A stretch of DNA of 64,000 nt from Candidatus Tayloriibacteriota bacterium (GCA_031384385.1 JANNAN010000007.1:10236-74235), one strand, 5' to 3'. Shown: positions 7,398-44,380, counted from the stretch's first letter. Notes: generated by a model from the sequence alone, not told the origin. A program made the numbers and translations.

Positions 7398-7478
7398 TTA
7401 GAGTTTCTTTATCTCGATCTGGTAAAATCCATGGATTATTAGATAAATTATATAAAATATTAATTTAGGCACCAATTC

Positions 7479-14483: not shown

Positions 14484-15335
14484 TTAGTAAGTAAACATCA
14501 AATCAATTGTGGCTTTCATTATATCGATCGGCATTGCTCCACCAAGAACTATCATTTTTGAATCAGTACTTATACGAATTGGATATTCTCCAGTATTTCG
14601 ATCTTTGTATGGTTCATATATAGCCATTAATTTTTCTTTTATTGAATCAGGAAAAACCTTACTTAATACTATAATGCTAGTTGGTGTTCCATTAATTCCA
14701 ATATTAACTCCGTCAAGATAATCAGCTTCTACCTTGTCTTTGAATTTATTTGTTGCAAGACAATTATTGAAATCATCTATATTCAATTCTGCGAACTTTG
14801 CAATATTTTGTAATTCTTTAGGATCAAGACCTTTTGGAGAATTGTTCGTAACTGATGGTGTTATTTCATAAAGACGATTTGTATAAGTCCAGAATTTTTC
14901 ATTTCCACCAAGAGAAGCTGCACATTCAAAAGCTTGAGATTCTCGTCCTGCATTTGGATGAAGAATACTTCCATCTGGTTTGGGTTTATCTAATGGAAAA
15001 CTTCTGTATACCCAGGCAACATTTCCTGTAGCACCATAATCAGCCATAACTTTTTTCATAGTATTGTGAAAAACTTTGCAGAAAGGACAAGATGGATCAG
15101 AATATTCAACTATTCTTACTTTTGCATTTGGATTGCCATTAATATGATCAGCCGCAGTAATTGCTCGCATTTGTTGTTCTGGAGAACTTTTGATTACTTG
15201 TTTAGCAGGTGACGGGCCTTTTGTGTAAATTATTGCAATTGCAATAATTGCACCGGCAATAACTATTGCTGTTGGAATATTTAATGATTTAGAATGATTC
15301 TTTATTTCTATTTGCGGTTCTTGTGTTGGTTCCAT
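14484..15335 (-). CDS. DsbA-family thiol:disulfide oxidoreductase, membrane-anchored
   Basis: An N-terminal TM helix and a thioredoxin-fold CPFC active site in the context SDPSCPFCKVFH. Confidence 0.7.
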   Translation of the reverse strand: MEPTQEPQIEIKNHSKSLNIPTAIVIAGAIIAIAIIYTKGPSPAKQVIKSSPEQQMRAITAADHINGNPNAKVRIVEYSDPSCPFCKVFHNTMKKVMADYGATGNVAWVYRSFPLDKPKPDGSILHPNAGRESQAFECAASLGGNEKFWTYTNRLYEITPSVTNNSPKGLDPKELQNIAKFAELNIDDFNNCLATNKFKDKVEADYLDGVNIGINGTPTSIIVLSKVFPDSIKEKLMAIYEPYKDRNTGEYPIRISTDSKMIVLGGAMPIDIMKATIDLMFTY

Positions 15336-19643: not shown

Positions 19644-20474
19644 ATGAATATAAATACTAAAATTACATTTTTTGAGGATAAGGAAATTAGAAAGGTTTGG
19701 GATGATAAGGAGGAGAAATGGTATTTTTCTGTTGTTGATATTGTTAAAGCATTAACCAATAGTTCAATCCCACGAAGATATTGGTCAGATTTGAAAAATA
19801 ACTTGAAAAATGAGGGAAGTGAAGTGTACGAGAAAATCGTACAGTTCAAAATGATAGCCGAAGACGGAAAAGAACGTGATACAGATACAGCAGATGTTGA
19901 GGGTATTTTCCGTCTTATCCAATCAATCCCATCCCCAAATGCTGAACCATTCAAGCTTTGGCTAGCTAGAGTTGGATATGAACGTGTAGAAGAAGCTAAT
20001 GATCCAGAATTGGCTATTAATCGCGCCCTACAAATATACTTAAAGAAAGGATATAGTTTAAATTGGATTAATCAAAGATTAAAGAGTATAGAAATTAGAA
20101 AAGACTTAACAGATGAATGGGATAAAAGAGGTGTAAAGAAAGGTCTAGAATATGCGTTGCTTACTGATGAAATAACTTTTGCTTGGGCTGGACTTTCTAC
20201 AAAAGAATATAAGAATCATAAAGGACTTAAAAAAGAAAATCTTCGAGATAATATGACAAATCTTGAGCTTGTATTAAATATGCTTGCTGAAGCTTCTACA
20301 ACTGCCATATCTGAGAAAGTAGAACCAAAAGATTTTGAAGAAAATAAAAAAGTAGCGCAGGAAGGCGGATCTGTGGCTGGAGTAGCTAGAAAGAAATTGG
20401 AAGAAAAAGTAGGGAAGACGGTGTTGAGTAGTAAGAAGTTTGGGGGTAGAAGAGATAAAGAGAAGTTAAAATAG
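19644..20474 (+). CDS. DinD-like (DNA-damage-inducible protein D family) protein, paralog 2
   Basis: 276 aa, collinear with the 7670-8491 product (WYFSVVDIVKAL, EGIFRLIQSIPSPNAEPFKLWLARVGYERV, KGLKKENLRDNMTNLELVLNMLAEASTT). Confidence 0.65.
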   Translation: MNINTKITFFEDKEIRKVWDDKEEKWYFSVVDIVKALTNSSIPRRYWSDLKNNLKNEGSEVYEKIVQFKMIAEDGKERDTDTADVEGIFRLIQSIPSPNAEPFKLWLARVGYERVEEANDPELAINRALQIYLKKGYSLNWINQRLKSIEIRKDLTDEWDKRGVKKGLEYALLTDEITFAWAGLSTKEYKNHKGLKKENLRDNMTNLELVLNMLAEASTTAISEKVEPKDFEENKKVAQEGGSVAGVARKKLEEKVGKTVLSSKKFGGRRDKEKLK

Positions 20475-23570: not shown

Positions 23571-24185
23571 TCAAGCCATGCTGGCGAGAATCCCCGGATC
23601 AAACTTTTGTCCAGTGATATTTTTCATGTGAGTTGCAACTTCAAGAGCAATCACGTCCAGTGGAGCATCTCCATCAATGTGTCTGATGGTGACTCCGACA
23701 TTGCTTGCCGCCCTGATTATGGATGAGAGATGATGGCGATGCAATTCAAAACGCTCATTAAACCATGCTTCATCATTTCTTGGCCCGTCAATTTGGGCCT
23801 TTGTTCTGTGAAAGTGCCGATTTTGGCACGTGGATCTTGATGCATTGAGAATGCAAAACGTATCACCATCACCAATGTGTCCATTTCCATTGAGGGCTAT
23901 GATTTGATTTGCTGTCCTACAGATACCATCCATGGCAGCAATTTCACCTTGGATACCGCTGATCAAATGTCCGCTGTGTGGAATCACAACCACGTCAGGC
24001 AATAAGTTGCCAGCATCCATGGTCGGTCCATATTTAGTGTCGAAGTCGAGACTTTTTTTCCGTAAATCGCGGAGATATTCCCCAAGGACGATAGTGGGCA
24101 CTTGTGGAAATGCCGCACGAAGACGTTTAATTGTGAATCCTTTTCCGACTGATACCGCACCGATAAGAACGAGTTTTCTTGCCAT
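23571..24185 (-). CDS. Divergent adenylate-kinase-family (NMP kinase-like) P-loop protein. GC-rich, probably horizontally acquired.
   Basis: P-loop LIGAVSVGKG. Collinear with Adk (GKGTQA...DMLRAAV...DAGKLV vs VGKGFTIKRL...GEYLRDL...DAGNLL) including the C-terminal segment. GC is well above the genome background. Confidence 0.5.
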   Translation of the reverse strand: MARKLVLIGAVSVGKGFTIKRLRAAFPQVPTIVLGEYLRDLRKKSLDFDTKYGPTMDAGNLLPDVVVIPHSGHLISGIQGEIAAMDGICRTANQIIALNGNGHIGDGDTFCILNASRSTCQNRHFHRTKAQIDGPRNDEAWFNERFELHRHHLSSIIRAASNVGVTIRHIDGDAPLDVIALEVATHMKNITGQKFDPGILASMA

Positions 24186-24337
24186 AATTTTAATTTAGTC
24201 TACTAACGTTGTTGTTTACCGTGGGTTGTTCAAAAAGTCCTCATTTCCTCAATGAGAAGAACAGCGACTTAAAATGATACCATAAAAAATAGAAATAGCA
24301 AGTTTATTGTTTAAGCCATTATTTACTTAAATTATCC

Positions 24338-24367
24338 ACATCTTTATCATTTCTTTATTCCGTCTAC
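24338..24367 (+). promoter_or_regulatory. Copy B of the conserved 27-nt motif, 84 nt upstream of the pilB start codon
   Basis: ACATCTTTATCATTTCTTTATTCCGTCT. A TATAAT-like box lies downstream at 24388-24393. Confidence 0.5.
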
Positions 24368-24424
24368 AGCGTTTCTTTATTCTATCTTTATAATTTCTTC
24401 ATAACTTTTTGATAGATTATCTAT

Positions 24425-25555
24425 ATGTCAGAAAATAAATATCAAATAAATTTAAATGAAAAAATATTACATGATATTCAATCAATAATTGAATTAGTAG
24501 ATTCTATTATTTATCATGCCTATAATCGTAATGCCTCGGATATTCATATGGATCCAACTCCAGAGGGAATTGTAGTCAGATTTAGAATTGATGGTGTTCT
24601 TCTGTATATAGATACATTAAAAAAAGAATATCACGAAGAATTAATAGCTAGAATAAAAGTTTTGGCGAGTTTGAGAACCGATATTCATTTTGTACCACAA
24701 GATGGTCGTTTTAAATTTAATTATGGGAACTGTAATTGTGATATTAGGGTTTCAATTATTCCAACACACTATGGTGAAAATGCAGTTTTAAGAATTTTAA
24801 AAAATGACAATAATATTTCAACTTTATTAAATTTAGGCTTTTCAAACATTGATTGCGAACGAATCACAAATGCATTATCGAATCATCAGGGAATGATTTT
24901 GATTACAGGCCCAACTGGTTCTGGTAAAACTTCTACTCTCTATGCTCTGATTTCTATGCTTTCAACAAAAAATAATTCAATAATAACTCTGGAAGACCCT
25001 ATAGAGTATACAATTCAAGGTGTCAGACAAATTCAAATTCATTCAAAACACGGTATTACTTTTGCGAACGGTCTTCGTTCAATAGTAAGACAAGATCCAG
25101 ATATTATCATGTTAGGTGAAATTCGTGATTCTGAAACAGCACAAGTTGCTACAAATATTTCATTAACAGGCCATTTACTTTTATCAACAATTCATACAAA
25201 TTCTGCGCTCGGAGTTATTCCAAGACTTATGGATATGAAAGTCGATTCATATTTAGTGTCTTCAACTCTTTCTTTGATAATAGCACAAAGACTTGTTCGT
25301 ACTCTATGTCAAATTTGTAAAGGTGATGGCTGTAATATGTGTGGAAATTTGGGATATAAAGGTCGAACAGTTATTGCTGAAGTTATTGTTATTGATGATG
25401 AATTAAGAAAATATATAATGTCACACATTTCAATTTCTGAAATTTCTAGGTATGTAAGAAGTAAAGGTATGTTAAGTATGTATGAAGATGGAATAGAAAA
25501 AGTAGAAAAAGGTATTACAACAAAAGAAGAGATTTTAAGGGTAATTCAAAATTAA
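24425..25555 (+). CDS. pilB: Type IV pilus assembly ATPase (GspE/PilB family, short form lacking the N-terminal domain)
   Basis: Walker A GPTGSGKTST, Walker B/Asp box and His box, and a C-terminal tetracysteine zinc motif (CQICKGDGCNMCG). Confidence 0.85.
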   Translation: MSENKYQINLNEKILHDIQSIIELVDSIIYHAYNRNASDIHMDPTPEGIVVRFRIDGVLLYIDTLKKEYHEELIARIKVLASLRTDIHFVPQDGRFKFNYGNCNCDIRVSIIPTHYGENAVLRILKNDNNISTLLNLGFSNIDCERITNALSNHQGMILITGPTGSGKTSTLYALISMLSTKNNSIITLEDPIEYTIQGVRQIQIHSKHGITFANGLRSIVRQDPDIIMLGEIRDSETAQVATNISLTGHLLLSTIHTNSALGVIPRLMDMKVDSYLVSSTLSLIIAQRLVRTLCQICKGDGCNMCGNLGYKGRTVIAEVIVIDDELRKYIMSHISISEISRYVRSKGMLSMYEDGIEKVEKGITTKEEILRVIQN

Positions 25556-25564
25556 TTTTAAAAT

Positions 25565-26623
25565 ATGAATATAAAATCTAGATTTTCAATTTCAGATCAA
25601 ATTTTCTTTGCTCAAAAACTCTCTTTGCTTTTGAATTCAAATATTTCTCTAGCTGAATCATTAAATATTATTAAATCAATCGACAATTCAAATAATCATA
25701 AAAATTTTTATGAGAAATTGATAAATGATGGCGAGCATGGAATTTCATTATCAAAAAGTATTGTTGATTCAAAGGTTAAATTTGATTCGCTTTTAATTGT
25801 TCTTATAAAAAATGGAGAATATTCAGGCTCTCTCGTTGATTCATTGAATCAAGTTGCTAATAATTTAGATAAAAGAAATGAATTAAATAAAAAATTAATT
25901 AGTACATTAATTTATCCATTATTTATTTTGTTCGCTACCATTGGCATGGCTTTGTTTCTTATTCTTTATATTTTTCCAAAGATTTTACCGTTACTTAGTA
26001 GTTTGAATATTAAACTACCATTGATAACTATTATTATTAAATTTATTTATGAATTTTCAATTTCCTATGGATTATATACATGTTTGATTCTTGTGCTCTC
26101 ATTTATTTGTATAGTTTTTTTAATTAAAAAAAATAAATATATAAAAAATAGATTTCACTATATTTTATTAAAAATTCCAATGTTGGGTTTATATATCAAA
26201 ATAAATACTTTAGCCACAATCTCGGGTACTGGAGAAATTATCTTATCTTCTGGTAGATCATTGAGTGAATTCCATGCTTTTTCTAGAGATTCTGTTAATA
26301 ATTTAATTTTCAAAAATACCTTTGAATCAATTTATTATCAATCAATTCAAGGAATTTCTTTTACAAATTCAATGAAATTATATCCAGATATTTTTGTAAA
26401 GATGATGGTTGATATGTGTGCAATTGGTGAAAAAACAGGTAATTTAGCATTGATGCTTGGTCACTGCTCTAAAATATTTGAACAAGATATTGATTTATTT
26501 TTGAAAAGATTCTCATCCTTAATTGAACCAGTTTTAATGATATTTATGGGTTTAATCGTTGGTTCAATTGCTTTATCAATAATTTTGCCAGTATATGAAA
26601 TCACGAATCATCTTAGTAAATAA
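25565..26623 (+). CDS. pilC: Type IV pilus platform protein (GspF/PilC family)
   Basis: A polytopic membrane protein with T2SS-F-type repeats (FFAQKLSLLLNSNISLAESLNII). Confidence 0.85.
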   Translation: MNIKSRFSISDQIFFAQKLSLLLNSNISLAESLNIIKSIDNSNNHKNFYEKLINDGEHGISLSKSIVDSKVKFDSLLIVLIKNGEYSGSLVDSLNQVANNLDKRNELNKKLISTLIYPLFILFATIGMALFLILYIFPKILPLLSSLNIKLPLITIIIKFIYEFSISYGLYTCLILVLSFICIVFLIKKNKYIKNRFHYILLKIPMLGLYIKINTLATISGTGEIILSSGRSLSEFHAFSRDSVNNLIFKNTFESIYYQSIQGISFTNSMKLYPDIFVKMMVDMCAIGEKTGNLALMLGHCSKIFEQDIDLFLKRFSSLIEPVLMIFMGLIVGSIALSIILPVYEITNHLSK

Positions 26624-27926
26624 TAAAATAAAGACTGATATGTTTGGTTTTATGATGATTGAAATTATTTTAGCTTTTTCTTTATTTTCACTTTTTACAA
26701 TTTCATATTTTACTTTAAATTTATCAATGCAATCTTTAAAAATTTGGTCTATAAAAGAATTGAATCTTTTAAAAAATTCGGTTTTTCAATTAGATAATTT
26801 TATTAAAAATGAAAATATTAATAAAAACTTTAATCAAATAAATTATGGAAATTATTCAAAATTAATTAATTTAAATGATTTAAGTATTGTAAAATCAAAT
26901 TTCGTAGATTCTTGGGGAAGTTCAAATTGTTTATCTAGAATAAATTTTGATTTATCAAAAATACAATATTATTCAAATGGGGTATTTTTAGGAACAGGGA
27001 ATATTAGTACAAATATCGAAGTCAGAAATTCTGTTATTTATTTAACAACTGATTCAAATGTACAATCTCAGTCAGACTTTTTTATTATTGATTCAACTGA
27101 TTTTATAAGTCCAATTATTATTTCTTCATTAAATACTGGTCCCGGTTTGTCGTCGATTGCTGTTGCTGGGCCATATGTCTATGCTGCTAATACAGGTTCA
27201 ATCTCACAATTACAAATTATTGATATTCATGATCGTAAAAACCCCTTTTTAATTTCTCAATTAAAAGTTCCATTTCCTGAAGCTTCCTCAACACCACCAA
27301 AAGCAAATTCTATTTTTTATAAAGATTCTTTTATTTATTTAGGGACTAGTAAGTGGGACGGACCAGAATTTTATATTATTGATATTTCAAATCCTATGAT
27401 ACCAAAGATAGTAGGAAATTTTGAAACTAATACATTAATTAATGATATTTATATTTATGAAAATATCGCATATTTAGCAACTTCAGATAATTTACAAATG
27501 CGTATTTTGGATATTTCAAATAAAAGTCAACCTATTCTTACGGATTCTTTCTCACCATCAGGATGGCAAACTCAAGGTGGCAAGGCTATTGATTTTTTTG
27601 AGGGGAAATTAGCACTAGGAAGAACTGTTGGTGGATTCAATAATATTTCGAATCATGAAGGTTTTATTTTTTCTACATCTACTAATTTAAATAATTTTAT
27701 CTCACATGATATTTTGGGTGGCATTTATGATTTTTTAATACGGTCATCTCATATTTTTCTGGCTACGCATAGTCCATCAGCTGAATTTCAAATATGGGAT
27801 TCTACTTTTTCAACAAAAATTTTTGAGAAAAAACTTGGATTTCAACCTCTAAGTTTTTCTTGTGATTGGTCTAATATATTCTTTACTACTGGAAATGATA
27901 TGGGTTTTGCTATTTTAAAATTATGA
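26595..27926 (+). CDS. Prepilin-like protein with LVIVD-type beta-propeller repeats (candidate pilus tip or adhesin subunit)
   Basis: N-terminal class-III signal-like segment MFG|FMMIEIILA. Repeated Y.YAAN...L.I.DI.....P motifs (YVYAANTGSISQLQIIDIHDRKNP; FIYLGTSKWDGPEFYIIDISNPMIP; IAYLATSDNLQMRILDISNKSQP) match LVIVD repeats. The true start may be the ATG at 26640. Confidence 0.55.
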   Translation: MKSRIILVNNKIKTDMFGFMMIEIILAFSLFSLFTISYFTLNLSMQSLKIWSIKELNLLKNSVFQLDNFIKNENINKNFNQINYGNYSKLINLNDLSIVKSNFVDSWGSSNCLSRINFDLSKIQYYSNGVFLGTGNISTNIEVRNSVIYLTTDSNVQSQSDFFIIDSTDFISPIIISSLNTGPGLSSIAVAGPYVYAANTGSISQLQIIDIHDRKNPFLISQLKVPFPEASSTPPKANSIFYKDSFIYLGTSKWDGPEFYIIDISNPMIPKIVGNFETNTLINDIYIYENIAYLATSDNLQMRILDISNKSQPILTDSFSPSGWQTQGGKAIDFFEGKLALGRTVGGFNNISNHEGFIFSTSTNLNNFISHDILGGIYDFLIRSSHIFLATHSPSAEFQIWDSTFSTKIFEKKLGFQPLSFSCDWSNIFFTTGNDMGFAILKL

Positions 27927-28105
27927 ATAAAATAAATTTAAATCTTGGTTTTTCATTAATCGAAATAATACTGTATGTATCACTTTTATCGTTAATGATG
28001 CTGGGCATTTTTTCTACACTTATATCATCTATTCAATTAAAAAATTTAGCAAAAACTATTTCAGATGAGGATTATAAATTATTAGTATCTAATTTTCATG
28101 AATAA
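27923..28105 (+). CDS. Minor (pseudo)pilin, 60 aa
   Basis: Prepilin N-terminus LG|FSLIEIILYV. Confidence 0.55.
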   Translation: MNKINLNLGFSLIEIILYVSLLSLMMLGIFSTLISSIQLKNLAKTISDEDYKLLVSNFHE

Positions 28106-28490
28106 AAAGATAATCAAAAAGAAAAAGGGTTTTGCTGCTTTTATTCTAATCATTTATATATCAACATTGATGCTTGTTTTTTCTTTTATGCAAGGAATTG
28201 AAATTGGACATTTTTTTGATCAGGTCAAAATAAAGCAATATAGATTAATGAATTATTACTTTGCATATTCTTGTATCGATCAGGCTATTCTTGCTTTGTC
28301 GCGTGATTATTTTCTTAATCTTAAAAAAGAAATTGAATTTTCTGATTTAAACTGCTCAATTGATTCAATTTCTAGTACAAATGAACAAAAAATGATTAAG
28401 GTTCATGGGAAATATAAAAATATTAATGTCTACCGCGTTGCAAACATTAAGCTTTTTGAGGACCACCTTGAAATTATTTCAATAGAATGA
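28098..28490 (+). CDS. Pseudopilin-like protein, 130 aa
   Basis: KKKG|FAAFILIIY N-terminal hydrophobic segment after a basic leader. Overlaps the previous gene. Confidence 0.5.
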   Translation: MNKKIIKKKKGFAAFILIIYISTLMLVFSFMQGIEIGHFFDQVKIKQYRLMNYYFAYSCIDQAILALSRDYFLNLKKEIEFSDLNCSIDSISSTNEQKMIKVHGKYKNINVYRVANIKLFEDHLEIISIE

Positions 28491-28496
28491 TGTATT

Positions 28497-28518
28497 TAAA
28501 ATCTCTATCATTTCTTTA
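28497..28518 (+). promoter_or_regulatory. Copy C of the conserved motif (degenerate), 84 nt upstream of the major pilin start codon
   Basis: TAAAATCTCTATCATTTCTTTA followed by further TTTCTTTAT-like repeats. Confidence 0.45.
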
Positions 28519-28585
28519 GAATTTCTTTATCAGATCTTTATCTCATTTGTGTAAGATTAAATTATTATAAATTTAATATTTAAAT

Positions 28586-29086
28586 ATGATTTTTAAAAAA
28601 ATAAACATAAAACCAAGAAGAAAAAAGGGATCTAAAAAAGGTGGTTTTACATTGATAGAAATTTTGGTAGTTATTGGGATTATTGCGGTTTTAGCAGCGG
28701 TAGTTCTTGTCGCAATAAACCCAGCAAGACAATTTAAACTAGCGCGTGATTCTCAAAGAGTAAGTAATATAACAGCCATTTTGAATGCAATTGGGCAAAA
28801 TATTGCAGAACATAAAGGACTTTTAAATTGTGGGAGTTCAACACCAAATATTAATGCATCTTCAACACTAATGACAAATGCTGTTGAATTAAATGGAATT
28901 GATATTTCTCGTTGCATTGTACCAAATTATATTTCTTCATTACCATTTGATCCAAGTAAAAATAATGCTTATATTCATGATGATGGAAAATATAATACAG
29001 GATATTATATTTCTCAGGATTCAAATGGACGCATTACTATTTCAGCCGATGGTGAAATTAATAATCCAATTAGTATAAATCGTTAA
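28586..29086 (+). CDS. Type IV major pilin (prepilin with a basic leader)
   Basis: Leader ...KKGG|FTLIEILVVIGIIAVLAAVV is the canonical N-methylation site with Glu+5. Confidence 0.75.
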   Translation: MIFKKINIKPRRKKGSKKGGFTLIEILVVIGIIAVLAAVVLVAINPARQFKLARDSQRVSNITAILNAIGQNIAEHKGLLNCGSSTPNINASSTLMTNAVELNGIDISRCIVPNYISSLPFDPSKNNAYIHDDGKYNTGYYISQDSNGRITISADGEINNPISINR

Positions 29087-29115
29087 TTTCTTGTACATGT
29101 TATAATTAGTATTCA

Positions 29116-30084
29116 ATGAATACCCACAAGAATTTATACTTCCTTACATTATTCTGTATCATTATTCTTCTTGGAATGATAATTGTTAAGGGGTATATAA
29201 ATAATATGAAAATCGATCATAATGATTATTTTCAAAGTATTAAAAAAATACTGATTACTGATAAGATTGATGACTCTATTCTTTTTCCAGAAAATAAATC
29301 ACAAAAAGTTAAAATTCCTGTTCTTAAACCAATAATAGATCCAAATATAATTAGTGCAGAATCCTATTTGATTGGTAATTTAGAAAATGGCAAAATATAT
29401 TTAGATTATAATTATGATAAAGTCTTTCCGATTGCTTCACTTAGTAAACTTTTTACAGCGATTGTTTCTATTCACGATATGGATCAAACTAAGAAAGTTA
29501 TTATTACTCAGGAATCTCTGGATACTTTTGGTGATGCTGGCAATCTTATTAAAGATGAGAAATTTACACCAAGTGAATTATTGTATCCATTGCTTTTAGA
29601 ATCAAGTAATGATGCTGCAGATGCTCTAGCTAGATCTTTTGATTATGATAAATTTATTAAAAAAATGAATGATTATACAATTGAATTAGGAATGAATTCT
29701 ACATCATTTAAAGATGCATCTGGATTGAGTTCTTCTAATACTTCAAATTCTAAAGATTTGTTCATATTATCTAAATATCTCTATAATAATGAAAAAGATT
29801 TATTAGATATTACAAAACAAAAAGAAGTCGAATTTGCTACGACCACAGATCATAAATATCATCATTTCTTTTCAATAAATCCATTTATATTCTACAAGCC
29901 ATTTATTGGCGGGAAAACTGGTAGAACCTTTGAAGCTCAAGAAAGTATGATTACTTTATTAAATTACAAAGTTGGCACAACGACCTATCCTATTTCTATT
30001 ATTGTTTTAAGATCAAAATATAGTGAAAGAGAAACAGATACAGAGAAGATTTTAGAATTATTTGAAAAAAAGATTAATAATTAA
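29116..30084 (+). CDS. D-alanyl-D-alanine carboxypeptidase (serine peptidase S11, PBP5-like)
   Basis: SxxK (ASLSK), SxN (SSNDAA) and KTG (GGKTGRT) motifs, with an N-terminal TM anchor. Confidence 0.8.
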   Translation: MNTHKNLYFLTLFCIIILLGMIIVKGYINNMKIDHNDYFQSIKKILITDKIDDSILFPENKSQKVKIPVLKPIIDPNIISAESYLIGNLENGKIYLDYNYDKVFPIASLSKLFTAIVSIHDMDQTKKVIITQESLDTFGDAGNLIKDEKFTPSELLYPLLLESSNDAADALARSFDYDKFIKKMNDYTIELGMNSTSFKDASGLSSSNTSNSKDLFILSKYLYNNEKDLLDITKQKEVEFATTTDHKYHHFFSINPFIFYKPFIGGKTGRTFEAQESMITLLNYKVGTTTYPISIIVLRSKYSERETDTEKILELFEKKINN

Positions 30085-30129: not shown

Positions 30130-32994
30130 TTATTGTATGGATTTTTTAGTAAGAGGTCCAAATATTCCTGTTGGTGATATGTTCATATTTATCTGATATT
30201 TCATAACAGCGTCGCGTGTAAAACTACCAAAGAATCCTTTGACTGTACCGACAGGGAGTATGAGATAACCTCTTGATTCAAGTAATGTTTGAAGTGATAT
30301 GACATCATCTCCTGTAAAACCGAATGAAAGATCTCTAGAATATGTACTTGTGCCTATTATAATTGGAGTAATGACAGGTGTGATAATGTTATTTGGTGTA
30401 ATATATTGAGATAATATTGTCTTACAAGTTGCAGTTCTAGTCATTGGTCCAAAATATCCCGTTGTCGGAACATTCACAATTCCTTGATGAGTCATAACCG
30501 AAGCTTTAGTGATTGCTCCAAAATATCCTTTGCTTACATTAACGGGCATTATTAAAAGTCCCTGAGATTCAAGATGGGTTTGAAGTGCGGATACTTCGAC
30601 GCCGCTATCGCCCATAGAAAGATTGCGTTCGAAATTACAACTTGCTGGTGTTATCACAACTGGCGTTGAAGCCGCAAAAGGTAAAATTATTTTCCTAATA
30701 CTACTTCCTCCTGACCTACTACTTGAAGATGAATTTGAAGATCCAACACCTGATGAGACAACTGTGGCAATAAGTCCGCGCCCTGTTCCTGATGAACCTC
30801 CACTTGAAAGATCGCCGGTAAATGGTGTTGAGCCATTAAGTATTACGATAGTTTGTCCTGAACTTGTCACACCAACATTAGCAAAACCACTATCGATACT
30901 TGTACTCAAATTGTCAAAACCAGATTTTGATACAGCGATTGATCCAGAACTTGTTGAAATAAAATAATATGCATTTGATACTGAAGTCGCAGCAGATGTT
31001 CCTCCATGAGTTACAGTCGCACCAGTCACAGCTGACCCGTTTGCATCACTGACCAATACTTTGAGAGTGTATTGTGTATCAGATAAAGTTTGAATTGATT
31101 GAGTATCTACATTGGCACTACGATTTGTGGTATCTCCAGAGGTACTTGTGACATATCCGCTTTTTGTGATGGTGATATCATTTGCAGTTCCATCTTCGCT
31201 GGTTGGTACTGGACAATATGCAATATTGGAAACAATGGTACATATAGTATTAGAAGAACCTGCAGTGACTGTTGCACCTGTTAGATTTTCTCCTGCTTCC
31301 GTTTGAAGTGTAATCTTCTGTGCAAATTGCAAACCTTGTCCACTCGCATTATTTCCTGCGGATACAGAAGATGTGAGAATAGATCCTGATCCGAAAGTGA
31401 TTGAAGTTGTGCTAGTTTGATTTGCGCTTACATTTGTAAGTCCTGTATTGTTTGTGGTTGCGGTGACATATCCGTTTTTTGCAAGAATAAGTGATCCTGA
31501 ACTGGTAGTTGTTGCCCAGTATGCGATATTTGATGTACTCGTAGAAACAGTAATACCGCCAAATGTTTTAGTCAGAAGATCAGAAATGTTAATTGCAGTT
31601 CCTAGTTCATCTGCAACAGTAACTTTTAAAGGATAACCGAAGCCGACAGTTGTCTGAATATTTCCACTTGCTTGTCCAATGCCAAATGTTTTTTGACTTG
31701 TAAGTGCTGAAATCAAATTTCCTGTGTCAGCAACAGTTCCTGCTGTCAGGTAGGCAGTATTTGCAGTCATACCATCAACAGTCACATTGTTTAAACTAAG
31801 TCTTATAGCATCATCGCCACCTCCATTTCCTGTAGTTGCGATATAGATCACATCACTTGCAACAGCTGAAGCAATGATAGATATACCACCAGATCCTGTA
31901 ATAGAAATATCAGTCGATGTAGCTCCAGGAATGCCGTTTGCGATATTTGTTATGTTTCCACCCAATTCTGATTTAAGGGCTGTAGATTTTAATGCGTATT
32001 CAAGACCTTTTAAGTTGAGCGTCTGTCCAATACTTATAGGGCTTGAGTTTATAGCATTTGCACCGAGAGTGATATTTGTTTGTCCTGTACTGTCTGCTGA
32101 TACATTTGCGAGTGCTGTGTTTGTAATGGCATTTGGAATAAATCCTGTTTTATTGATAACAATAACTTTTGACAATCCTGCACTAGGTGCAAAATAAAAG
32201 ACATTTGAAGAGGATGCAGTTTCAATTGATCCATCGAAAGTGATAGATGTTGGAGTTATACTATTTCCCAATTCATCTGCTACGCTAACTTTTACTTGAA
32301 ATAAAATATTTGTAGGAGAGATAGATCCTTGAACATCAGTAAGAGATGTTCGATTTCCGACACTTGATGAAGTATTTGTAACATAACCAGACTTTGCAAT
32401 ACTCAATGCTGCACCATCTGATGCAATAGGAACTGGACAATAAAAAATGCCTAGTGTTTGGGCTTCGATACAAACTGTTGCACCGACTCCGACCGTAGCA
32501 CCAGAAAGTGCACCCCCATCTCCTTCACGAGTGATTGTTGCTTTGTGTGCAAACTTTACCGAGTCAGAGCCAGTGAATGTGAAAGAGTTAACACTATTGA
32601 GAAGCGATTCGATGGCTCCAAGTTTTTCTTTTGTCACATAGCCGTCTTTACTCACTTGTATATCAAGGGAACTACCAACAATACATGTACCAGCATTTAA
32701 AAGGAGATTGGTAAGTGTTGTAAGATCAGTTATAGATACCACACCAGAAGAATTAGTGGTAACTCCAACATCAGTATATGATCCTGCATTACATTTTATT
32801 TTCACTATCGCTCCTTCAAGGGCAGTGGCTGAGACTGCCTCACGATTGACTGTGATAGTTAGCCCATCAGTGATGGCTGCATGAGCACTCTGTGGTGTAT
32901 ATAAAAAGTTGATAATAGAAATAAAAAATAGGACCATAAAAATAGACCCCATTCGAAACGATCCACGCGCATGTATAAAATTTTTCATTATCAT
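30130..32994 (-). CDS. Large secreted surface protein: signal peptide, at least 5 Thr/Ser/Gly-rich beta-sandwich repeats each ending in KSGYVT, and two C-terminal PG_binding_1-like peptidoglycan-binding domains
   Basis: 954 aa. Repeats: SKDGYVTKE, AKSGYVTNTSSS, AKNGYVTATTNN, TKSGYVTSTSGD. Two C-terminal ~60-aa units LS.G..G..V..LQ..LE..G.L......G.FG..T..AV...Q. An SSSSS linker is present. Confidence 0.7.
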   Translation of the reverse strand: MIMKNFIHARGSFRMGSIFMVLFFISIINFLYTPQSAHAAITDGLTITVNREAVSATALEGAIVKIKCNAGSYTDVGVTTNSSGVVSITDLTTLTNLLLNAGTCIVGSSLDIQVSKDGYVTKEKLGAIESLLNSVNSFTFTGSDSVKFAHKATITREGDGGALSGATVGVGATVCIEAQTLGIFYCPVPIASDGAALSIAKSGYVTNTSSSVGNRTSLTDVQGSISPTNILFQVKVSVADELGNSITPTSITFDGSIETASSSNVFYFAPSAGLSKVIVINKTGFIPNAITNTALANVSADSTGQTNITLGANAINSSPISIGQTLNLKGLEYALKSTALKSELGGNITNIANGIPGATSTDISITGSGGISIIASAVASDVIYIATTGNGGGDDAIRLSLNNVTVDGMTANTAYLTAGTVADTGNLISALTSQKTFGIGQASGNIQTTVGFGYPLKVTVADELGTAINISDLLTKTFGGITVSTSTSNIAYWATTTSSGSLILAKNGYVTATTNNTGLTNVSANQTSTTSITFGSGSILTSSVSAGNNASGQGLQFAQKITLQTEAGENLTGATVTAGSSNTICTIVSNIAYCPVPTSEDGTANDITITKSGYVTSTSGDTTNRSANVDTQSIQTLSDTQYTLKVLVSDANGSAVTGATVTHGGTSAATSVSNAYYFISTSSGSIAVSKSGFDNLSTSIDSGFANVGVTSSGQTIVILNGSTPFTGDLSSGGSSGTGRGLIATVVSSGVGSSNSSSSSRSGGSSIRKIILPFAASTPVVITPASCNFERNLSMGDSGVEVSALQTHLESQGLLIMPVNVSKGYFGAITKASVMTHQGIVNVPTTGYFGPMTRTATCKTILSQYITPNNIITPVITPIIIGTSTYSRDLSFGFTGDDVISLQTLLESRGYLILPVGTVKGFFGSFTRDAVMKYQINMNISPTGIFGPLTKKSIQ

Positions 32995-33130
32995 TTATTT
33001 TCCATTTTGTTTGCACGACAATATTTAAATGTACGCACAAAAAATTGATTATTAATATTTAAATTGTATCGCATATATTATAAAAAATAAATAGTTTGAA
33101 ATATAATGTGGTATAATTATCTATAAAAAT

Positions 33131-33613
33131 ATGAGTATTCATCCAAAAGTAAGTATTGGTCATGTACATTTAACAGTCGCTGATCTAGATCGATCACTTA
33201 GGTTCTACCGAGATCTTTTGGGGTTTGAAGTAACAACATGGTATGGAGATTCTGCAGTGTTCCTATCAGCAGGAGGATATCATCATCATATTGGATTGAA
33301 TACATGGGCAGGAAAAGATAGTACATCTGCTCCTAAGGGACATACAGGCTTGTATCATTTTGCAATTCTTTTTCCCACAAGAAAAGAATTAGCTAAGATT
33401 GTTAAGAAATTATTGGATAGTAATTATCAAATAGATGGATCAGCAGATCATGGCGTATCTGAAGCAATATATATTCGTGATTCTGATAATAATGGAGTTG
33501 AATTGTATGTCGACAGGCCGCGTGAGATGTGGAAGAAGGGTTCGGACGGCAAGTTCATAATGGAAACTTTGCCTCTCGATCTTAAAAAGTTACTTGAGGA
33601 AATTGATAATTAA
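33131..33613 (+). CDS. VOC-family (glyoxalase/bleomycin-resistance/dioxygenase fold) protein
   Basis: IGHVHLTVADLDRSLRFYRDLLGFEV, a typical VOC N-terminal module. Confidence 0.7.
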   Translation: MSIHPKVSIGHVHLTVADLDRSLRFYRDLLGFEVTTWYGDSAVFLSAGGYHHHIGLNTWAGKDSTSAPKGHTGLYHFAILFPTRKELAKIVKKLLDSNYQIDGSADHGVSEAIYIRDSDNNGVELYVDRPREMWKKGSDGKFIMETLPLDLKKLLEEIDN

Positions 33614-33938
33614 TTTTTAAGATAAATAATTAGGTGTGTATAAATTAAAAATCCTTACTAAGGTAAGCATATTAATTTCACTTCAAATATTCAGGAGGCA
33701 AAATAATCTTCATCTTTTCGAATCCTAATGCGACGCCAGCAGAGGCGTCGTTCCTTCTGTGAATTAAAAATAGGCACATACACCGCGTTTTTTAATTGCT
33801 CGACATGGTGCGGGATATCGGAACCTTTTGGAAGACAAACAAAGAGCATATTTGGCTACCGAATATCAGGCAGGGTTTCTTTGGGATAGTACGACCAACG
33901 GACAAGGAAATGGCGAAATATCGCTAAATTACCGAAAG

Positions 33939-34160
33939 TGCATAGTGCAGTATGCGAAAAATACCTTTTCTGCATAGTACAGCGTGATGAGTATGCAAAA
34001 AAGGCAAATTTTGACCACTAAATACACTGTACTGGTCAAAAAGTACGTTTTTTGACCAGTACAACGTGTGAAGTGTACAAAAAAGGTAATTCTGTCCAGT
34101 AAAACAGGTTTGTTGGACAAAATCGGTACTTTTTGTCCAGTTGAGCGATGGTCCCAAGCT
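33939..34160. repeat. Array of ~5.5 direct repeat units (~40 bp, alternating two unit types), each containing an imperfect palindrome (TGACCAGTA...TACTGGTCA / TGTCCAG...TGGACA / TGCATAG...TATGCA) followed by AAAAAG(G/T)AC...TTTT
   Basis: Read directly: units at ~33939, 33971, 34013, 34054, 34094, 34135. The array shares a GTCCAGTAAAA/AAAAAGTA core with the 42760-43140 array. Confidence 0.6.
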
Positions 34161-34666
34161 TATTTCGGCCTGTCTCCCTTCAACAATCTCTCAAAAGCCT
34201 CAAGGTTCCCCATAGCATCATGCACTGGATGATGATCGTGCTTTGTTATACTTAGCCTTTTCCAAGATGAGGCGTCTTTGAAGTCTCCGATTAAGCCAGC
34301 ATAAAAATCACCGATTCTTCTAGCAGAATATCCAAATGGATTTCTGCCTAGGGTTCGATGAAAACTATCATTGATCCACTGCCAGTCAAAAGCAGGATTG
34401 TCACTGACAAATTTAGGTCTCTCCTCGCCGCTTATTTCTTGTAGCCAGGCATCAAACTTTTTGAACACCTCCACTTCATCAAAGACCACGCCGGTCGCCA
34501 CTTTGATATTAGAATCTTCATTAGAAGGCTTTCGTTCTACCAAGACGCCATGAAAAGTAGCCTTCGATGGATATGCAACCGCACCAAATTCAGTAAGTTG
34601 TCCCATACTCGGACACTTACCGTTTGCCTCACAATCTACAAAGATTAAATTTTTTAGACTTTCCAT
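34160..34666 (-). CDS. DEDDh 3'-5' exonuclease domain protein (DnaQ epsilon-like)
   Basis: Exo I FVDCEANG, Exo II SDNPAFDWQWI and Exo III HHPVHDAMGNLEAF (H-x4-D). Confidence 0.65.
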   Translation of the reverse strand: MESLKNLIFVDCEANGKCPSMGQLTEFGAVAYPSKATFHGVLVERKPSNEDSNIKVATGVVFDEVEVFKKFDAWLQEISGEERPKFVSDNPAFDWQWINDSFHRTLGRNPFGYSARRIGDFYAGLIGDFKDASSWKRLSITKHDHHPVHDAMGNLEAFERLLKGDRPK

Positions 34667-34740
34667 ACCTATAGTTTAGCTTCAGATCCAAAATTTATGA
34701 AGCCCCCTCAAACTCTTGATGACCACTTATCCACATTTAA

Positions 34741-34823
34741 GTTTGAATACATTGATTGACTGGATGTATCCAAACATGTATACTTTGAATACATTATAAA
34801 AAAGATGTATACAAACATGAATT
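34741..34823. repeat. 42-bp direct repeat x2 (TTTGAATACATT-N8-GATGTATnCAAACATG) in the divergent promoter region, extending over the Fic start codon
   Basis: Unit 1 at 34741-34782 and unit 2 at 34783-34823. Both carry short TGTAT/ATACA inverted elements. Confidence 0.5.
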
Positions 34824-35959
34824 CTATCCAAATTGGCGAACTAAAAGAGCAGAAAGAAGGCTTCAAAGCTTTCATCCCAGGATCTTTTCCTCCGAAAGGC
34901 GGCTTTGAATTTGACCCTAAAATCGTAAAGAAAAGCGATGAGGCTACCCGTTTGCTCGGAAAGCTCGACGGCATCACTAAGCTTTTGCCAGATGCAGATT
35001 TTTTCTTGCTTATGTACTTGAGAAAAGATGCTGCATCATCAAGTCAGATCGAGGGTACAATGGCAACAATGGTTGATGCTATTGAAGCTGAAGTTCAGTC
35101 AAGCACAAAGATTCCGGAAGATGTAGATGATATTTTGCATTACATTAAAGCACTCAATTATGGAATGGAGCGGGTACAACAGGACAATTTTCCTATCTCG
35201 CTGAGGTTCATTCGAGAGCTACATAAGCAATTGATGGATAAGGCGCGCACTACACACTTCTCAGACCCAGGTGAGTTTAGGAAAACTCAAAACTGGATTG
35301 GTGGCACTCGTCCCGACAATGCTCGATTTGTTCCTCCACCGGTTGATGACATGAATAATGCACTGACTGATCTGGAAAAGTTCATGCACACTGACGATCC
35401 GACACTTACTTTGATCAAAGCGGCTCTTGTTCATGCCCAGTTTGAAACTATTCACCCGTTTCTAGATGGAAATGGCAGGACGGGCCGTATGCTTATAACC
35501 TTTTATTTATGGAAGGAAGGTTATCTCGAAAGACCGGTATTGTTTTTGTCATCCTTCTTTAAGAAGCACCAAAAAGTGTACTACGAGAGACTCTTCGGCT
35601 ATCACTTTGGTAATGCCGCGGAATGGGTTGATTTCTTTCTCGACGGCGTAATAGAGATCGCGAATGAAGCAATTGAAATTGTTTCGAAGATAACCGCACT
35701 CCGTGAAAAGGATGTCGTGAAGATACAGACGCTCGGTAAACGTGCTTCAGAAAGTGCGGTCCTTGTGCTGCCTAAATTGTATGGACAGCCAATTGTAAAT
35801 GTCTCCTTGATTCAAAAATGGACAGGGTTTAATCGTGCCGCATCTCAAACTGTAATCAAACGCTTTATAGACATGGGTATTCTTACTCCTAAGGATAAAG
35901 ATAAGAAGTATGGCAAATCATACATATACAAGAAATATGTAGATATTTTCTCTGAATAA
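34805..35959 (+). CDS. Fic/Doc-family protein (AMPylator-type Fido domain) with a C-terminal winged-helix
   Basis: Canonical Fic motif HPFLDGNGRTGRML. The start may instead be the ATG at 34817. Confidence 0.85.
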   Translation: MYTNMNSIQIGELKEQKEGFKAFIPGSFPPKGGFEFDPKIVKKSDEATRLLGKLDGITKLLPDADFFLLMYLRKDAASSSQIEGTMATMVDAIEAEVQSSTKIPEDVDDILHYIKALNYGMERVQQDNFPISLRFIRELHKQLMDKARTTHFSDPGEFRKTQNWIGGTRPDNARFVPPPVDDMNNALTDLEKFMHTDDPTLTLIKAALVHAQFETIHPFLDGNGRTGRMLITFYLWKEGYLERPVLFLSSFFKKHQKVYYERLFGYHFGNAAEWVDFFLDGVIEIANEAIEIVSKITALREKDVVKIQTLGKRASESAVLVLPKLYGQPIVNVSLIQKWTGFNRAASQTVIKRFIDMGILTPKDKDKKYGKSYIYKKYVDIFSE

Positions 35960-35964
35960 AATCT

Positions 35965-36153
35965 ATGAATCCCGTTGCAAACCAAAACCAAAAAGAAACC
36001 TATATCAAGTGCAGGAAATGCGGCACTGAGGTTTTTACCATTACAAATGGTGGTTTAATTCCATGTAAATGCGGTGCTATTTCCGTTGATGGCTCTACAG
36101 ACCTCGTGAGGGTACTTGGTAATCCCGAGGACTACGAGGAAATACAAAAATAA
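35965..36153 (+). CDS. Small zinc-ribbon protein (62 aa)
   Basis: CRKCG...CKCG. Lies between Fic and the RM gene. Confidence 0.35.
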   Translation: MNPVANQNQKETYIKCRKCGTEVFTITNGGLIPCKCGAISVDGSTDLVRVLGNPEDYEEIQK

Positions 36154-36157
36154 TTAT

Positions 36158-41925: not shown

Positions 41926-41928
41926 AGA

Positions 41929-42654
41929 TTGTTCATGAAAAATATAGAAGAAGGACTCAAAGAGATCTACGAAAATATAAGAAAATTAGAATCCTTAATA
42001 AATACTAAAAATGATCTTACTAGGATACATAAGGACAATGTATTTAATAGGAGATTTTCTGTTGTTCTCAGTGATTTTTCTGATCTTGAAACTATAGGAA
42101 TGAGACTTAATAAAAACATACCTGAAGTTGAGACTTTACAGAGGATTATACAAAAACGCTTCAAGTCCGAAGATAAGGACAGAATTACAGATGAAGGTCA
42201 AAGACTGCACCAAGAATCGGATAAGATTAATCGAGAAAATCAGGTAGATTTCAAATGTTTATATATTTTTTCAAAGATATTTCTTGATCAATATACTACT
42301 CTAATCAAATTATTATTTAATTGGCGAGGTATTGGCGACAAGTCAATTACAAGTTTTTATAATAGCCTAGAAAAATATAAAGGAGAGGAAGAACAGATCA
42401 TTTCTTTTAAAGATAGTTGCTTAAAAAGACTTAAAGCAATTGATGTTTTTGTAACAGAATACCGTGATCAATATGTTGTGCATGATCAAACTAAACATAA
42501 AGATACAAGATGGTTTTTAAATGATATGACGGGCAGTGTTAGATTTATTGGTGGTAGGCCATCAATAACACCACAGGAGTTGGTTTTTGTTGTTTCTAAT
42601 TATATTAAGGACTCCGTCACCTTTATAAAAGATCAAGAAAGCACCCTGAATTAG
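41929..42654 (+). CDS. Hypothetical protein (241 aa), last gene of the four-gene cluster
   Basis: Starts 4 nt after the T5orf172 gene on the same strand. No recognisable motifs. Confidence 0.5.
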   Translation: MFMKNIEEGLKEIYENIRKLESLINTKNDLTRIHKDNVFNRRFSVVLSDFSDLETIGMRLNKNIPEVETLQRIIQKRFKSEDKDRITDEGQRLHQESDKINRENQVDFKCLYIFSKIFLDQYTTLIKLLFNWRGIGDKSITSFYNSLEKYKGEEEQIISFKDSCLKRLKAIDVFVTEYRDQYVVHDQTKHKDTRWFLNDMTGSVRFIGGRPSITPQELVFVVSNYIKDSVTFIKDQESTLN

Positions 42655-42759
42655 GGCCTAAATTGCCCTGTGTACGCTTTTCCAAGCCTATTCAGGGCTT
42701 TTTACGTGTCTTGGCCAATACCCACTAATTTGCACTAATTCCGACCCCATACTTACTGG

Positions 42760-43140: not shown

Positions 43141-43185
43141 GAAAGAGCTGAGTCAACTTGCAATGGGGACTCAGCTCTTTCTGTT
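43126..43185 (+). promoter_or_regulatory. Two interleaved inverted repeats (CCCATTGCA...TGCAATGGG and AGAGCTGAGTC...GACTCAGCTCT), a pseudoknot-like or alternative-hairpin element followed by CTGTTTTC
   Basis: The arms are ordered a-b-a'-b' with 9-bp and 11-bp stems, immediately upstream of or overlapping the 43163 ORF start. Confidence 0.45.
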
Positions 43186-44375: not shown

Positions 44376-44380
44376 AAACT

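Follow-up and report, generated by a model that had tools for sequence, protein, structure and literature searches.

A conserved type IV filament operon of Patescibacteria encodes a predicted modular prepilin headed by an LVIVD propeller

Introduction

Pilins that combine a pilin signature with the LVIVD repeat have been catalogued before. The census of Raynaud et al. (2021) contains about 30 proteins with the architecture IPR012902-IPR013211 (8+8+7+4+1+1+1; PMC8179133, Dataset S1), the second signature being the LVIVD repeat (PMC10210494). Its text also mentions a Falkowbacteria pilin of 860 residues in which this repeat, there a 'motif of unknown function', occurs 12 times (PMC8179133). In the same work PilB of S. 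sanguinis was modelled at the filament tip, owing to steric clashes in the filament body (PMC8179133). Within the candidate phyla radiation (CPR), PilX2 of the type IV pilus 2 (T4P-2) of Nanosynbacter lyticus TM7x (Saccharibacteria) is needed for efficient host binding and not for filament extrusion (PMC11623550). Moreover, a position at the very tip of the priming complex has been assigned to pilins without the glutamate at position +5 (Glu5), namely PilX homologs and GspK (PMC7541494). Here we describe a six-gene locus at positions 24425-29086, on the + strand, of a 64-kb stretch of DNA (hereafter the window) from a Candidatus Tayloriibacteriota bacterium (GCA_031384385.1 JANNAN010000007.1:10236-74235). 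A preliminary description had proposed a type IV pilus locus of a reduced, episymbiont-type lineage, encoding an uncommon fusion of a prepilin to an LVIVD beta-propeller. As we show, the locus is indeed a type IV filament (T4F) locus, and the source names of its homologs (Taylorbacteria, Paceibacterota and Nomurabacteria) point to Patescibacteria/CPR. It is a pared-down T4F operon, conserved over a large part of Patescibacteria (Paceibacteria/Taylorbacteria-like), and we hold with little doubt that inside this conserved operon lies the gene for a modular prepilin with an LVIVD propeller. Most Patescibacteria are uncultivated, and partner attachment and DNA or nutrient uptake are known experimentally only for a few Saccharibacteria.

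Results

Calling of open reading frames (ORFs) on the window recovered six + strand ORFs at the positions originally reported. The earlier reading as pilB, pilC and four genes with prepilin-type N-termini is confirmed for all six ORFs as regards their Pfam families and N-termini. The first ORF (24425..25555) encodes a T2SSE-family assembly ATPase of 376 aa (Pfam T2SSE 389 bits, E = 2.3e-116) and the second (25565..26623) a 352-aa platform protein of the T2SSF/PilC/GspF/ComGB family (Pfam T2SSF 133.5 bits, in 2 stretches). These are followed by the predicted LVIVD modular minor prepilin (443 aa, 26595..27926), for which the evidence comes from Pfam LVIVD, an AlphaFold2 (AF2) model, Foldseek, the signal motif and synteny. 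Next come p60 (60 aa, 27923..28105), a head-less minor prepilin recognised from its N-terminus, its orthologs and hhalign profile comparison, and p130 (130 aa, 28098..28490), a pilin-like minor protein without Glu5 that was assigned from its N-terminus, an AF2 model and its context. The last of the six is p166 (166 aa, 28586..29086), the major pilin candidate, which carries GG/FTLIEILVVIGIIAVLAAVVLVAINPARQFKLARDSQR and matches Pfam N_methyl and TIGR02532. The four N-termini are, in gene order, MKSRIILVNNKIKTDMFG/FMMIE, MNKINLNLG/FSLIE, MNKKIIKKKKG/FAAFI and ...GSKKGG/FTLIE, where the slash marks the cleavage-type site.

The LVIVD gene is a core, translationally coupled member of this cassette. 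It overlaps the platform gene by 29 nt and shares the sequence ATGA with the p60 gene (a 4-nt overlap, as read from the junction sequence). The p60 and p130 genes in turn overlap by 8 nt, and the 95-nt gap before the p166 gene is the sole sizeable intergenic gap of the cassette. A terminator scan detected no terminator-like site inside the cassette, and a scan of this AT-rich DNA found sigma-70 promoter-like sites at chance level (53 versus 47.4 expected). The cassette region (24001-30000) has a G+C content of 0.25-0.29 compared with 0.31-0.38 in its surroundings.

The LVIVD repeats previously ascribed to the 443-aa protein are recovered by Pfam LVIVD (PF08309) in 3 stretches, at E = 4.4e-11 and 42.4 bits against a gathering cutoff of 20.2. 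Three repeats are visible in the sequence (GPYVYAANTGSISQLQIIDIHDRKNP, DSFIYLGTSKWDGPEFYIIDISNPMIP and ENIAYLATSDNLQMRILDISNKSQP), and 46/46 aligned relatives match LVIVD as well. The leader (aa 1-18; 26595-26648, +) ends at a cleavage-type site, G18/F19, with E23 at +5, giving the N-terminus MKSRIILVNNKIKTDMFG/FMMIEIILAFSLFSLFTISYF. Across the 46-member alignment, G occupies position -1 in 38/38 sequences, F follows at +1 in 38/38 and E stands at +5 in 41/41, these counts covering only sequences that are not truncated there (the missing ones are truncated gene calls). Judged from the aligned sequences, the prepilin signature of the family is far beyond chance. A basic leader, G, a hydrophobic +1 residue, Glu at +5 and some 20 hydrophobic residues, which together characterise a class III signal, are all found in the 443-aa protein, p60 and p166, and p130 has all of them but the Glu. 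Moreover, the majority fraction is 0.65 in alpha-1N compared with 0.42 in alpha-1C of the LVIVD family, which is a pilin-like trend, and hhalign places the mature LVIVD N-terminus in register with the p60 family (positions 1-29 to 1-29, E = 1.8e-4). For the start codon, the upstream ATG at 26595 is favoured by a leader consensus among orthologs, MK[LS][QPR]I[IT]..., whose Met is mostly the sole one before G/F. The start annotated by NCBI (P0001, 428 aa, MFG/F; 26595-26639 affected) is probably 15 aa too short, and an independent Logan gene call gives 443 aa.

An AF2 model of the 443-aa protein, built on the family alignment, reached a predicted local distance difference test score (pLDDT) of 89.3 and a predicted template modelling score (pTM) of 0.83. 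It comprises an alpha-1 helix of 53 residues (aa 20-72), a three-stranded pilin sheet at aa 80-101 (strands 80-83, 88-93 and 96-101) and 28 strands that form seven four-stranded blades, with an N-terminal strand (124-126) closing the last blade. Accordingly numbered, the pilin module spans aa 19-~110 and the predicted seven-bladed LVIVD beta-propeller aa ~124-443 (26964-27923, +). Foldseek against PDB matched the model to seven-bladed WD40 propellers (beta-TrCP, E = 1e-10; target-normalised template modelling score <= 0.76; ~10% identity), with no pilin or PilY1 among the top 50 matches. A PDB sequence-profile search with the family alignment returned nothing significant (best E = 0.19, 5hrm), and Pfam gave neither an RCC1 match nor a PilY1/Neisseria_PilC domain match. 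The features of the PilY1/PilC tip adhesins (an IPR008707 propeller, a type I signal and a non-pilin nature) are absent from the protein. Both parts of the fusion anticipated in the preliminary description are therefore upheld: the propeller by the confident seven-bladed model and its WD40 matches, and the prepilin leader, as opposed to an ordinary signal peptide, by the invariant G/F...E, the long helix and the pilin sheet. On this model, the 443-aa protein is predicted to be a modular prepilin with a class III-type signal, alpha-1, a minimal pilin sheet and an LVIVD propeller as its head. It has the combination of a pilin module with a further domain, here LVIVD, that defines a modular pilin sensu Raynaud et al. 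2021, without a match to IPR012902. Two cysteines, C112 (26928-26930) and C423 (27861-27863), are invariant in the family.

The other three pilin-type proteins differ in the head that they carry. p60 is a head-less pilin, with a mature length of ~51 aa made up of alpha-1 and a conserved C-terminal tail of acidic or aromatic character, DYxLLxxNFHE. Its Pfam N_methyl score is 18.6 bits against a cutoff of 21.2, and its family aligns in register with the N-terminus of p166 (hhalign, E = 8e-6). The 36 p60 orthologs from related loci keep MNKG/[FSNIM][TS]LIE, a median mature length of 51 aa and the tail DYELLIxNFHE. We also observed a p60-type gene, left uncalled, in two related contigs, L001 (11302-11472) and L065 (about 5130-5260).

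The +1 residue of p130 is F in 45/45 orthologs; at +5 these vary among T, I, V, A, S, M and F, and none has E or D. An AF2 model (pLDDT 88.9) has a helix (3-69) and a 4-stranded antiparallel sheet (86-129), which is the pilin 'lollipop'. p130 has no Pfam, NCBIfam or N_methyl match, and none of its 32 database relatives is annotated. Two cysteines, C59 (28272-28274) and C86 (28353-28355), are invariant; the conservation of such pairs in both the 443-aa protein and p130 suggests that they may form disulfides. With a leader, alpha-1, no Glu5 and a gene set among those for minor pilins, p130 resembles the GspK/PilX type of apex subunit. It is therefore a candidate apex subunit by analogy, not by family membership, as NCBIfam and Foldseek revealed no sequence or fold similarity to GspK or PilX. 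Finally, p166 is the obvious candidate for the major subunit: it is the only cassette protein to pass the cutoffs of both Pfam N_methyl (30.5 bits) and TIGR02532 (27.6 bits), and the N-terminal 40 aa of its orthologs are near-invariant (FTLIEILVVIGIIAVLAAVVLVAINPxRQFKLARDSQR).

The names pilB and pilC, as first given to the two assembly genes, hold at the level of the T2SSE and T2SSF families and no further, since both products are short forms that fall below every NCBIfam equivalog cutoff. Against NCBIfam the ATPase scores 440 bits with GspE, 386 with PilB and 250 with ComGA, and reaches no equivalog cutoff among GspE, PilB, TfpB and ComGA (the cutoffs are 676 bits for PilB, 300 for ComGA and 240 for ComGB). 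Its alignment begins at position 104 of the GspE model and position 176 of the PilB model; the ATPase is N-terminally minimal and without an N1 domain. It carries a tetracysteine motif, CQIC...CNMC, of the type typical of assembly ATPases. The platform protein, also N-terminally minimal, scores below the cutoffs for GspF, PilC and ComGB (123 bits for the last). No second ATPase or platform paralog is encoded near the cassette. A PilB score of 386 against 676 bits, and the absence of PilT and PilM/N/O from the 64-kb window and cassette flanks, set the locus apart from type IVa pili (T4aP), although genes for PilT and PilM/N/O may lie elsewhere in the genome. Membership of ComG, T4aP or the type II secretion system (T2SS) was considered and rejected, every equivalog cutoff being missed.

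A search of 5.8 billion proteins yielded at least 437 relatives of the 443-aa protein (as 90%-identity clusters). More than 120 LVIVD pilin relatives align over the full length at 44-69% identity, none of which bears a name other than 'hypothetical'; where a source is named at all, it is Candidatus Taylorbacteria, Paceibacterota or 'Patescibacteria group'. Scanning species-representative genomes, we detected 60 loci, 50 of them in Patescibacteria metagenome-assembled genomes. Wherever a Patescibacteria locus has enough flank, tblastn recovered the same succession of ATPase, platform protein, LVIVD pilin, (p60) and p130. In ~60% of these loci the genes for the major pilin and Peptidase_S11 come immediately next, typA is usually upstream, and of the 46 related loci with a p130 gene, 31 have p166 immediately after it. 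The same order and the same 29-nt overlap appear in metagenomic contigs whose genes were called independently, and the overlap is kept in distant cassettes. By contrast with these loci, tblastn found none of the cassette context around ten distant LVIVD proteins from other phyla. The cassette thus consists of the ATPase, the platform protein, the LVIVD pilin, a ~50-aa head-less pilin and a ~125-aa E5-less pilin, usually then the major pilin.

A wider profile search of 1.84 billion cluster representatives returned 30,494 LVIVD proteins at E <= 1e-3, 3,293 of them at E <= 1e-30. Among the best 150, 102 are short (<700 aa) and 75 of these 102 have a class III-type signal, in which the -1 residue is G in 75/75 and the +5 residue is D in 43 and E in 32. 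The other 27 short proteins are mostly gene calls starting inside alpha-1 or fragments. Of the 48 giant LVIVD proteins, only P0278 has a clear class III signal; the others begin with ordinary signal peptides. The proteins with Asp at +5 form a sister group (P0166, P0176, P0178, P0189, P0210 and others; loci L065-L068) with N-termini such as G/IILIDALLALS. For two Asp5 members the surrounding genes are those of the same cassette: the ATPase is short, the 29-nt overlap is kept, and a ~52-aa pilin, a ~105-aa pilin with no acidic +5 residue, the major pilin and Peptidase_S11 are all encoded. Therefore, the operon is orthologous over a wide span of Patescibacteria. As an observation in its own right, a conserved D5 is unusual for type IV pilins. 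That the fusion is uncommon, as had been proposed, is thus not the case: there are at least 437 clusters, ~50 species-level genomes with the same operon, class III signals in 75/102 short proteins, and ~30 architectures already listed.

The Peptidase_S11 gene (29116..30084, +; Pfam Peptidase_S11 E = 7e-31) encodes a D,D-carboxypeptidase and is the next gene after the major pilin. This adjacency is kept even in very distant cassettes. However, it is uncertain whether the enzyme is a member of the system, because the typA, hisS and dsbA-like neighbourhood is also syntenic and the linkage may reflect a conserved backbone. On the other side of the cassette, divergent from the ATPase promoter region, lies a gene for an ADK-like P-loop protein (23571-24185, -; Pfam ADK 23.7 bits, below cutoff), which is kept in many related and distant cassettes (L003, L009, L015, L065).

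Median identities to the window proteins, taken over 33 loci with full coverage, are 71% for the ATPase, 61% for the major pilin p166, 51% for the platform protein, 49% for the LVIVD pilin, 46% for p60 and 44% for p130. Within the LVIVD pilin the propeller has a median identity of 54% compared with 41% for the pilin module. The D-A and B-C loops of a propeller make up its 'top', the canonical ligand-binding face. In the LVIVD family, positions that are >=90% conserved make up 36/104 of the D-A/B-C loops versus 7/54 of the A-B/C-D loops (Mann-Whitney p = 5e-5), and the outer strand D is least conserved. The conserved motifs include NTGPG, KWxGxE, ETNTxIND, SDxxQ, SGWQTQxGK, GRTxGGxN...NHE and DxPGGxYG. 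As far as sequence conservation can tell, this face-specific pattern indicates a conserved binding or catalytic surface. Moreover, the conserved face and slow evolution of the propeller point to a conserved ligand or a structural priming role, which they would fit better than a host-specific adhesin. A tip location is reasonable in view of the size of the head and of precedents, but with a propeller as conserved as the platform protein and invariant residues gathered on one face, the earlier idea of a tip adhesin for host contact is weakened.

Upstream of the cassette we found an array of ~6 repeats in 11-nt phase (24339..24404, +), a putative promoter or operator situated 20-85 nt upstream of the ATPase start. 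The unit is about wTTCTTTAtnn, and Tandem Repeats Finder reports a period of 11/22. A second 11-nt-phased array (28502..28540, +) lies within the 95-nt gap, 46-84 nt upstream of the major pilin start. The pattern TCTTTA-N5-TCTTTA has 17 matches in the window against 2.2 expected, a number that 0/100 shuffles reach. The same repeat element precedes the ATPase gene in 9 related loci, and in the closest relatives (L001, L008 and L009) the stretches before the ATPase gene and before the pilin gene of one genome have 44-47 identical nt. Across 643 kb of related loci, 35/36 + strand occurrences of the pattern fall at these two positions, and in more distant genomes the two upstream regions have other words in common. 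Related loci with 11-nt-phased repeats are L001, L005, L006, L008, L009, L016 and L035. Within the window there is also a third 11-nt-phased array (7373-7411, +) and a single repeat unit (60801-60817, -). An 11-bp direct-repeat geometry resembles the binding sites of winged-helix response regulators. The repeat arrays may be a shared operator for such a winged-helix regulator, or a phased-T-tract/curved-DNA promoter element.

No prepilin peptidase is encoded in the window, as had been noted before: Pfam found no Peptidase_A24 in any window ORF of at least 110 aa, and a motif and hydrophobicity scan found no polytopic ORF with a GxGD[VIFL]K motif. The partial ORFs at the right end of the window are FtsL- and FtsI-like. 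PilD is widespread in CPR (PMC6744442) and pilBCDMT clusters are present in Paceibacteria (PMC9763046).

The remainder of the window holds housekeeping genes (rpoB/C, dnaG, rpoD, hisS, typA, mreB/C, PBP2, mraZ/W) at ~30% G+C. Convergent to the cassette is a gene for a 954-aa Thr/Ser/Gly-rich predicted surface protein (30130-32994, -) with two C-terminal PG_binding_1 domains, which lies outside the conserved synteny examined. A DsbA-like/Thioredoxin_4 gene (14484-15335, -) is found ~9 kb upstream of the cassette in conserved synteny (also in L003 and L067), and in CPR a supporting part in pilin folding has been suggested for disulfide oxidoreductases (PMC6744442). From about 33100 to 46100 the G+C content is higher (0.37-0.43), and this island encodes a glyoxalase, a Fic protein, a helicase, a T5orf172 protein, a helix-turn-helix protein, a MmeI-type restriction-modification enzyme (36116-38833) and a large serine recombinase (44381-46042) that abuts a tRNA-Asn gene (46001-46076, -). 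The island is probably an integrated mobile element with defence genes. Two paralogous Bro-N proteins of 273 and 276 aa (7670-8491 and 19644-20474) are encoded between housekeeping genes; the third repeat array and a hairpin, ACCTGTTCCAAAATGGAACAGGT (about 7481-7503), both lie upstream of the first of them. Two MreB paralogs, MreC and a PBP2-type transpeptidase (52253-53266, 57064-58122, 58094-58840 and 59108-60778) constitute a full rod-shape apparatus in an ultra-small bacterium.

Discussion

We favour, with some reserve, a model in which the three minor pilins form a tip or priming complex that displays the propeller. In this model a prepilin peptidase encoded elsewhere would cleave the prepilins, and p130, the propeller pilin and p60 would then assemble on the platform protein into a heterotrimer-like priming complex. 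Beneath it the ATPase would polymerise the major pilin p166, so that the complex, with its ~320-residue propeller, would end at the filament tip. The propeller is placed at the tip because a head of this size would be too bulky for the filament body. There the conserved D-A/B-C 'top' face could bind a ligand common to many habitats or hosts, such as an envelope glycan, a peptidoglycan element or DNA, and the propeller pilin would merge the roles of PilY1 and a minor pilin in one polypeptide. That adhesion to a conserved ligand is the function is quite conceivable, and we stop just short of favouring it. More tentatively still, the all-pilin tip complex might be an ancestral and near-universal capture device in a large part of the Patescibacteria, shared by the Glu5 and Asp5 lineages, with an invariant face for one ligand and switched on by the repeat operator that the promoters of the machinery and of the major pilin would have in common; we regard this as doubtful in its full extent. 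If true, it would offer a testable molecular handle on how uncultivated Paceibacteria attach to, and feed from, their partners.

Several points weigh against the model. First, the N_methyl models (Pfam PF07963 and TIGR02532) do not match the 443-aa protein, and 0/46 of its relatives match PF07963 at E <= 0.01. The LVIVD pilins go unseen as pilins by annotation pipelines and domain censuses for this very reason, and the present family probably escaped the census of Raynaud et al. in the same way. Second, neither the window nor ~640 kb of flanks from 50 related loci contains a prepilin peptidase, and processing of the prepilins is therefore assumed. Third, Foldseek of the p130 model against PDB gives only non-significant partial matches of the NTF2/lipocalin type, and hhalign of p130 with the other three pilin families is not significant; its assignment as a pilin thus rests on topology, motif and context. 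Fourth, the structural details of the head come from a model: strands were assigned to faces from their DSSP order and from strand D being weakly conserved, how the conserved face is turned with respect to the helix is inferred, and the disulfide between C112 and C423, which would tie the last blade to the linker, is probable. Lastly, adhesins do not usually evolve as slowly as this propeller does, and a purely structural or priming role would account for its pace equally well.

In one alternative, the propeller protein would be a non-polymerised, membrane-anchored pseudopilin at the base of the machine. Its propeller, in the wall zone, would anchor or align the machine or bind peptidoglycan, and so replace PilM/N/O. 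The conservation of the protein equals that of the platform, to which its gene is coupled by the conserved 29-nt overlap. Moreover, the cassette has no PilM/N/O genes, its ATPase is without the N1 domain that normally contacts such partners, and a D,D-carboxypeptidase is a conserved neighbour. However, the strict G/F...E/D(+5) signature is a hallmark of filament subunits and would be unnecessary in a static anchor. The trio of an E5-less, a bulky and a small subunit also matches known priming and tip complexes, and precedents put bulky modular pilins at the tip. We therefore think it unlikely that the propeller sits at the base.

A second alternative is that the cassette builds a Com-like pseudopilus for DNA uptake and that the conserved face captures extracellular DNA. 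The scores speak against this (ComGA 250 versus 300 bits, ComGB 123 versus 240), even though the ATPase and platform protein are of ComGA/ComGB-like minimal length and the two models align end to end. The gene order is unlike that of comG, where the gene for the major pilin is next to that for the platform protein and not at the end of the operon as here, and comEA, comEC and comF are missing from the window. On the other hand, the cassette has no retraction ATPase, the lineage is of a monoderm type without a secretin, and CPR depend on imported nucleotides, with competence genes widespread among them (PMC6744442). A highly conserved binding face would fit a universal ligand such as DNA, yet acidic or polar side chains (D, E, N, Q) account for many of the conserved positions on the top face, which is atypical for a DNA-binding surface. 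On balance a role of this kind appears improbable.

A third reading takes the propeller as a catalytic or effector module that the filament delivers and not as a passive adhesin; it could be a hydrolase or lyase whose substrate would be host envelope polymers or the wall of the cell itself. Invariant polar and acidic residues form a cluster on one face (NTGPG, KW.G.E, SD..Q, GWQTQ.GK, GRT.GG.N...NHE, D.PGG.YG), modular pilins with predicted peptidase modules exist (PMC8179133), and the marginal sequence match to 5hrm (E = 0.19) is to a 7-bladed phosphotriesterase. However, there is no significant similarity to an enzyme family in Pfam, NCBIfam or the PDB profile search, the best structural matches are non-catalytic WD40 scaffolds, and LVIVD repeats have no known function (PMC10210494). 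We give a catalytic head only a slim chance.

Finally, that the 443-aa protein is an ordinary Sec-secreted or anchored LVIVD surface protein merely lying beside pilus genes is largely refuted and very improbable: silent N_methyl models and the ordinary signal peptides of most giant LVIVD proteins would suit it, but an invariant G/F with an acidic +5 residue is foreign to Sec signals, a 53-residue N-terminal helix leads into a pilin-type sheet, the mature N-terminus matches neighbouring pilins in register by profile, and the fixed operon position with overlapping frames in ~50 genomes led us to reject chance adjacency.

We return to the tip or priming complex as the favoured reading. The pilin-LVIVD kind is already known among modular pilins, and no new kind of system is revealed here. 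What is new is a much larger family, which detection based on N_methyl misses and which carries no annotation beyond 'hypothetical protein'; the constant position of its gene in a minimal, conserved operon that has a set of three minor pilins; the conservation of one propeller face over the other; the sister lineage with Asp5; and the duplicated repeat operator. These findings correct the idea of a rare fusion. The conserved propeller face is a defined target for binding assays, and the cassette is compact enough for heterologous reconstitution.

Comparison with known systems

Like ComG (ComGA-GG), the cassette has a compact ATPase, a platform protein and several pilins, and is without PilM/N/O, PilT and a secretin. 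In ComG the major pilin, ComGC, is the third gene, whereas in the present cassette it is the last. To our knowledge, no Com minor pilin carries a propeller.

The minor pilins of type II secretion offer a similar parallel, as GspK-GspI-GspJ form a set of heterotrimer size with a large member that has an extra domain and one member without Glu5 proposed at the apex. However, GspK is both E5-less and bulky, two properties that are divided in the present cassette: p130, which is small, has no E5, and the bulky subunit has it. NCBIfam and, for p130, Foldseek gave no match to GspK, GspI or GspJ above threshold. Unlike type II secretion, the present lineage is without an outer membrane or secretin.

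In PilY1/PilC with FimU-PilVWX (PMC7541494) there is likewise a propeller at the tip together with minor pilins, PilX is without Glu5, and the complex primes assembly. PilY1 is a non-pilin with a type I signal that is held non-covalently, whereas here the propeller is predicted to be a covalent part of a pilin. The minor pilins number three in the present cassette and four in FimU-PilVWX.

Modular pilins such as S. sanguinis PilB and PilC also have an N-terminal pilin module and a bulky C-terminal module, with display at the tip expected. The pilin-LVIVD architectures in the census of Raynaud et al. are listed without analysis, and a full-text literature search for LVIVD and pilin found no paper treating LVIVD pilins. 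The LVIVD pilin described here is a fixed core gene of the operon, not an accessory pilin.

A parallel in CPR is PilX2, again a minor pilin with a C-terminal seven-bladed propeller that is encoded together with a dedicated ATPase and a major pilin. As compared by its published description, PilX2 has RCC1 repeats and a non-canonical signal peptide, whereas the 443-aa pilin has LVIVD repeats and a strict G/FxxxE. The lineage also differs, being of the Paceibacteria-like class, as does the cassette with its three minor pilins and N1-less ATPase. An analogous propeller pilin is thus a fixed part of a six-gene pilus operon in a different and much larger group, the Paceibacteria/Taylorbacteria-like Patescibacteria.

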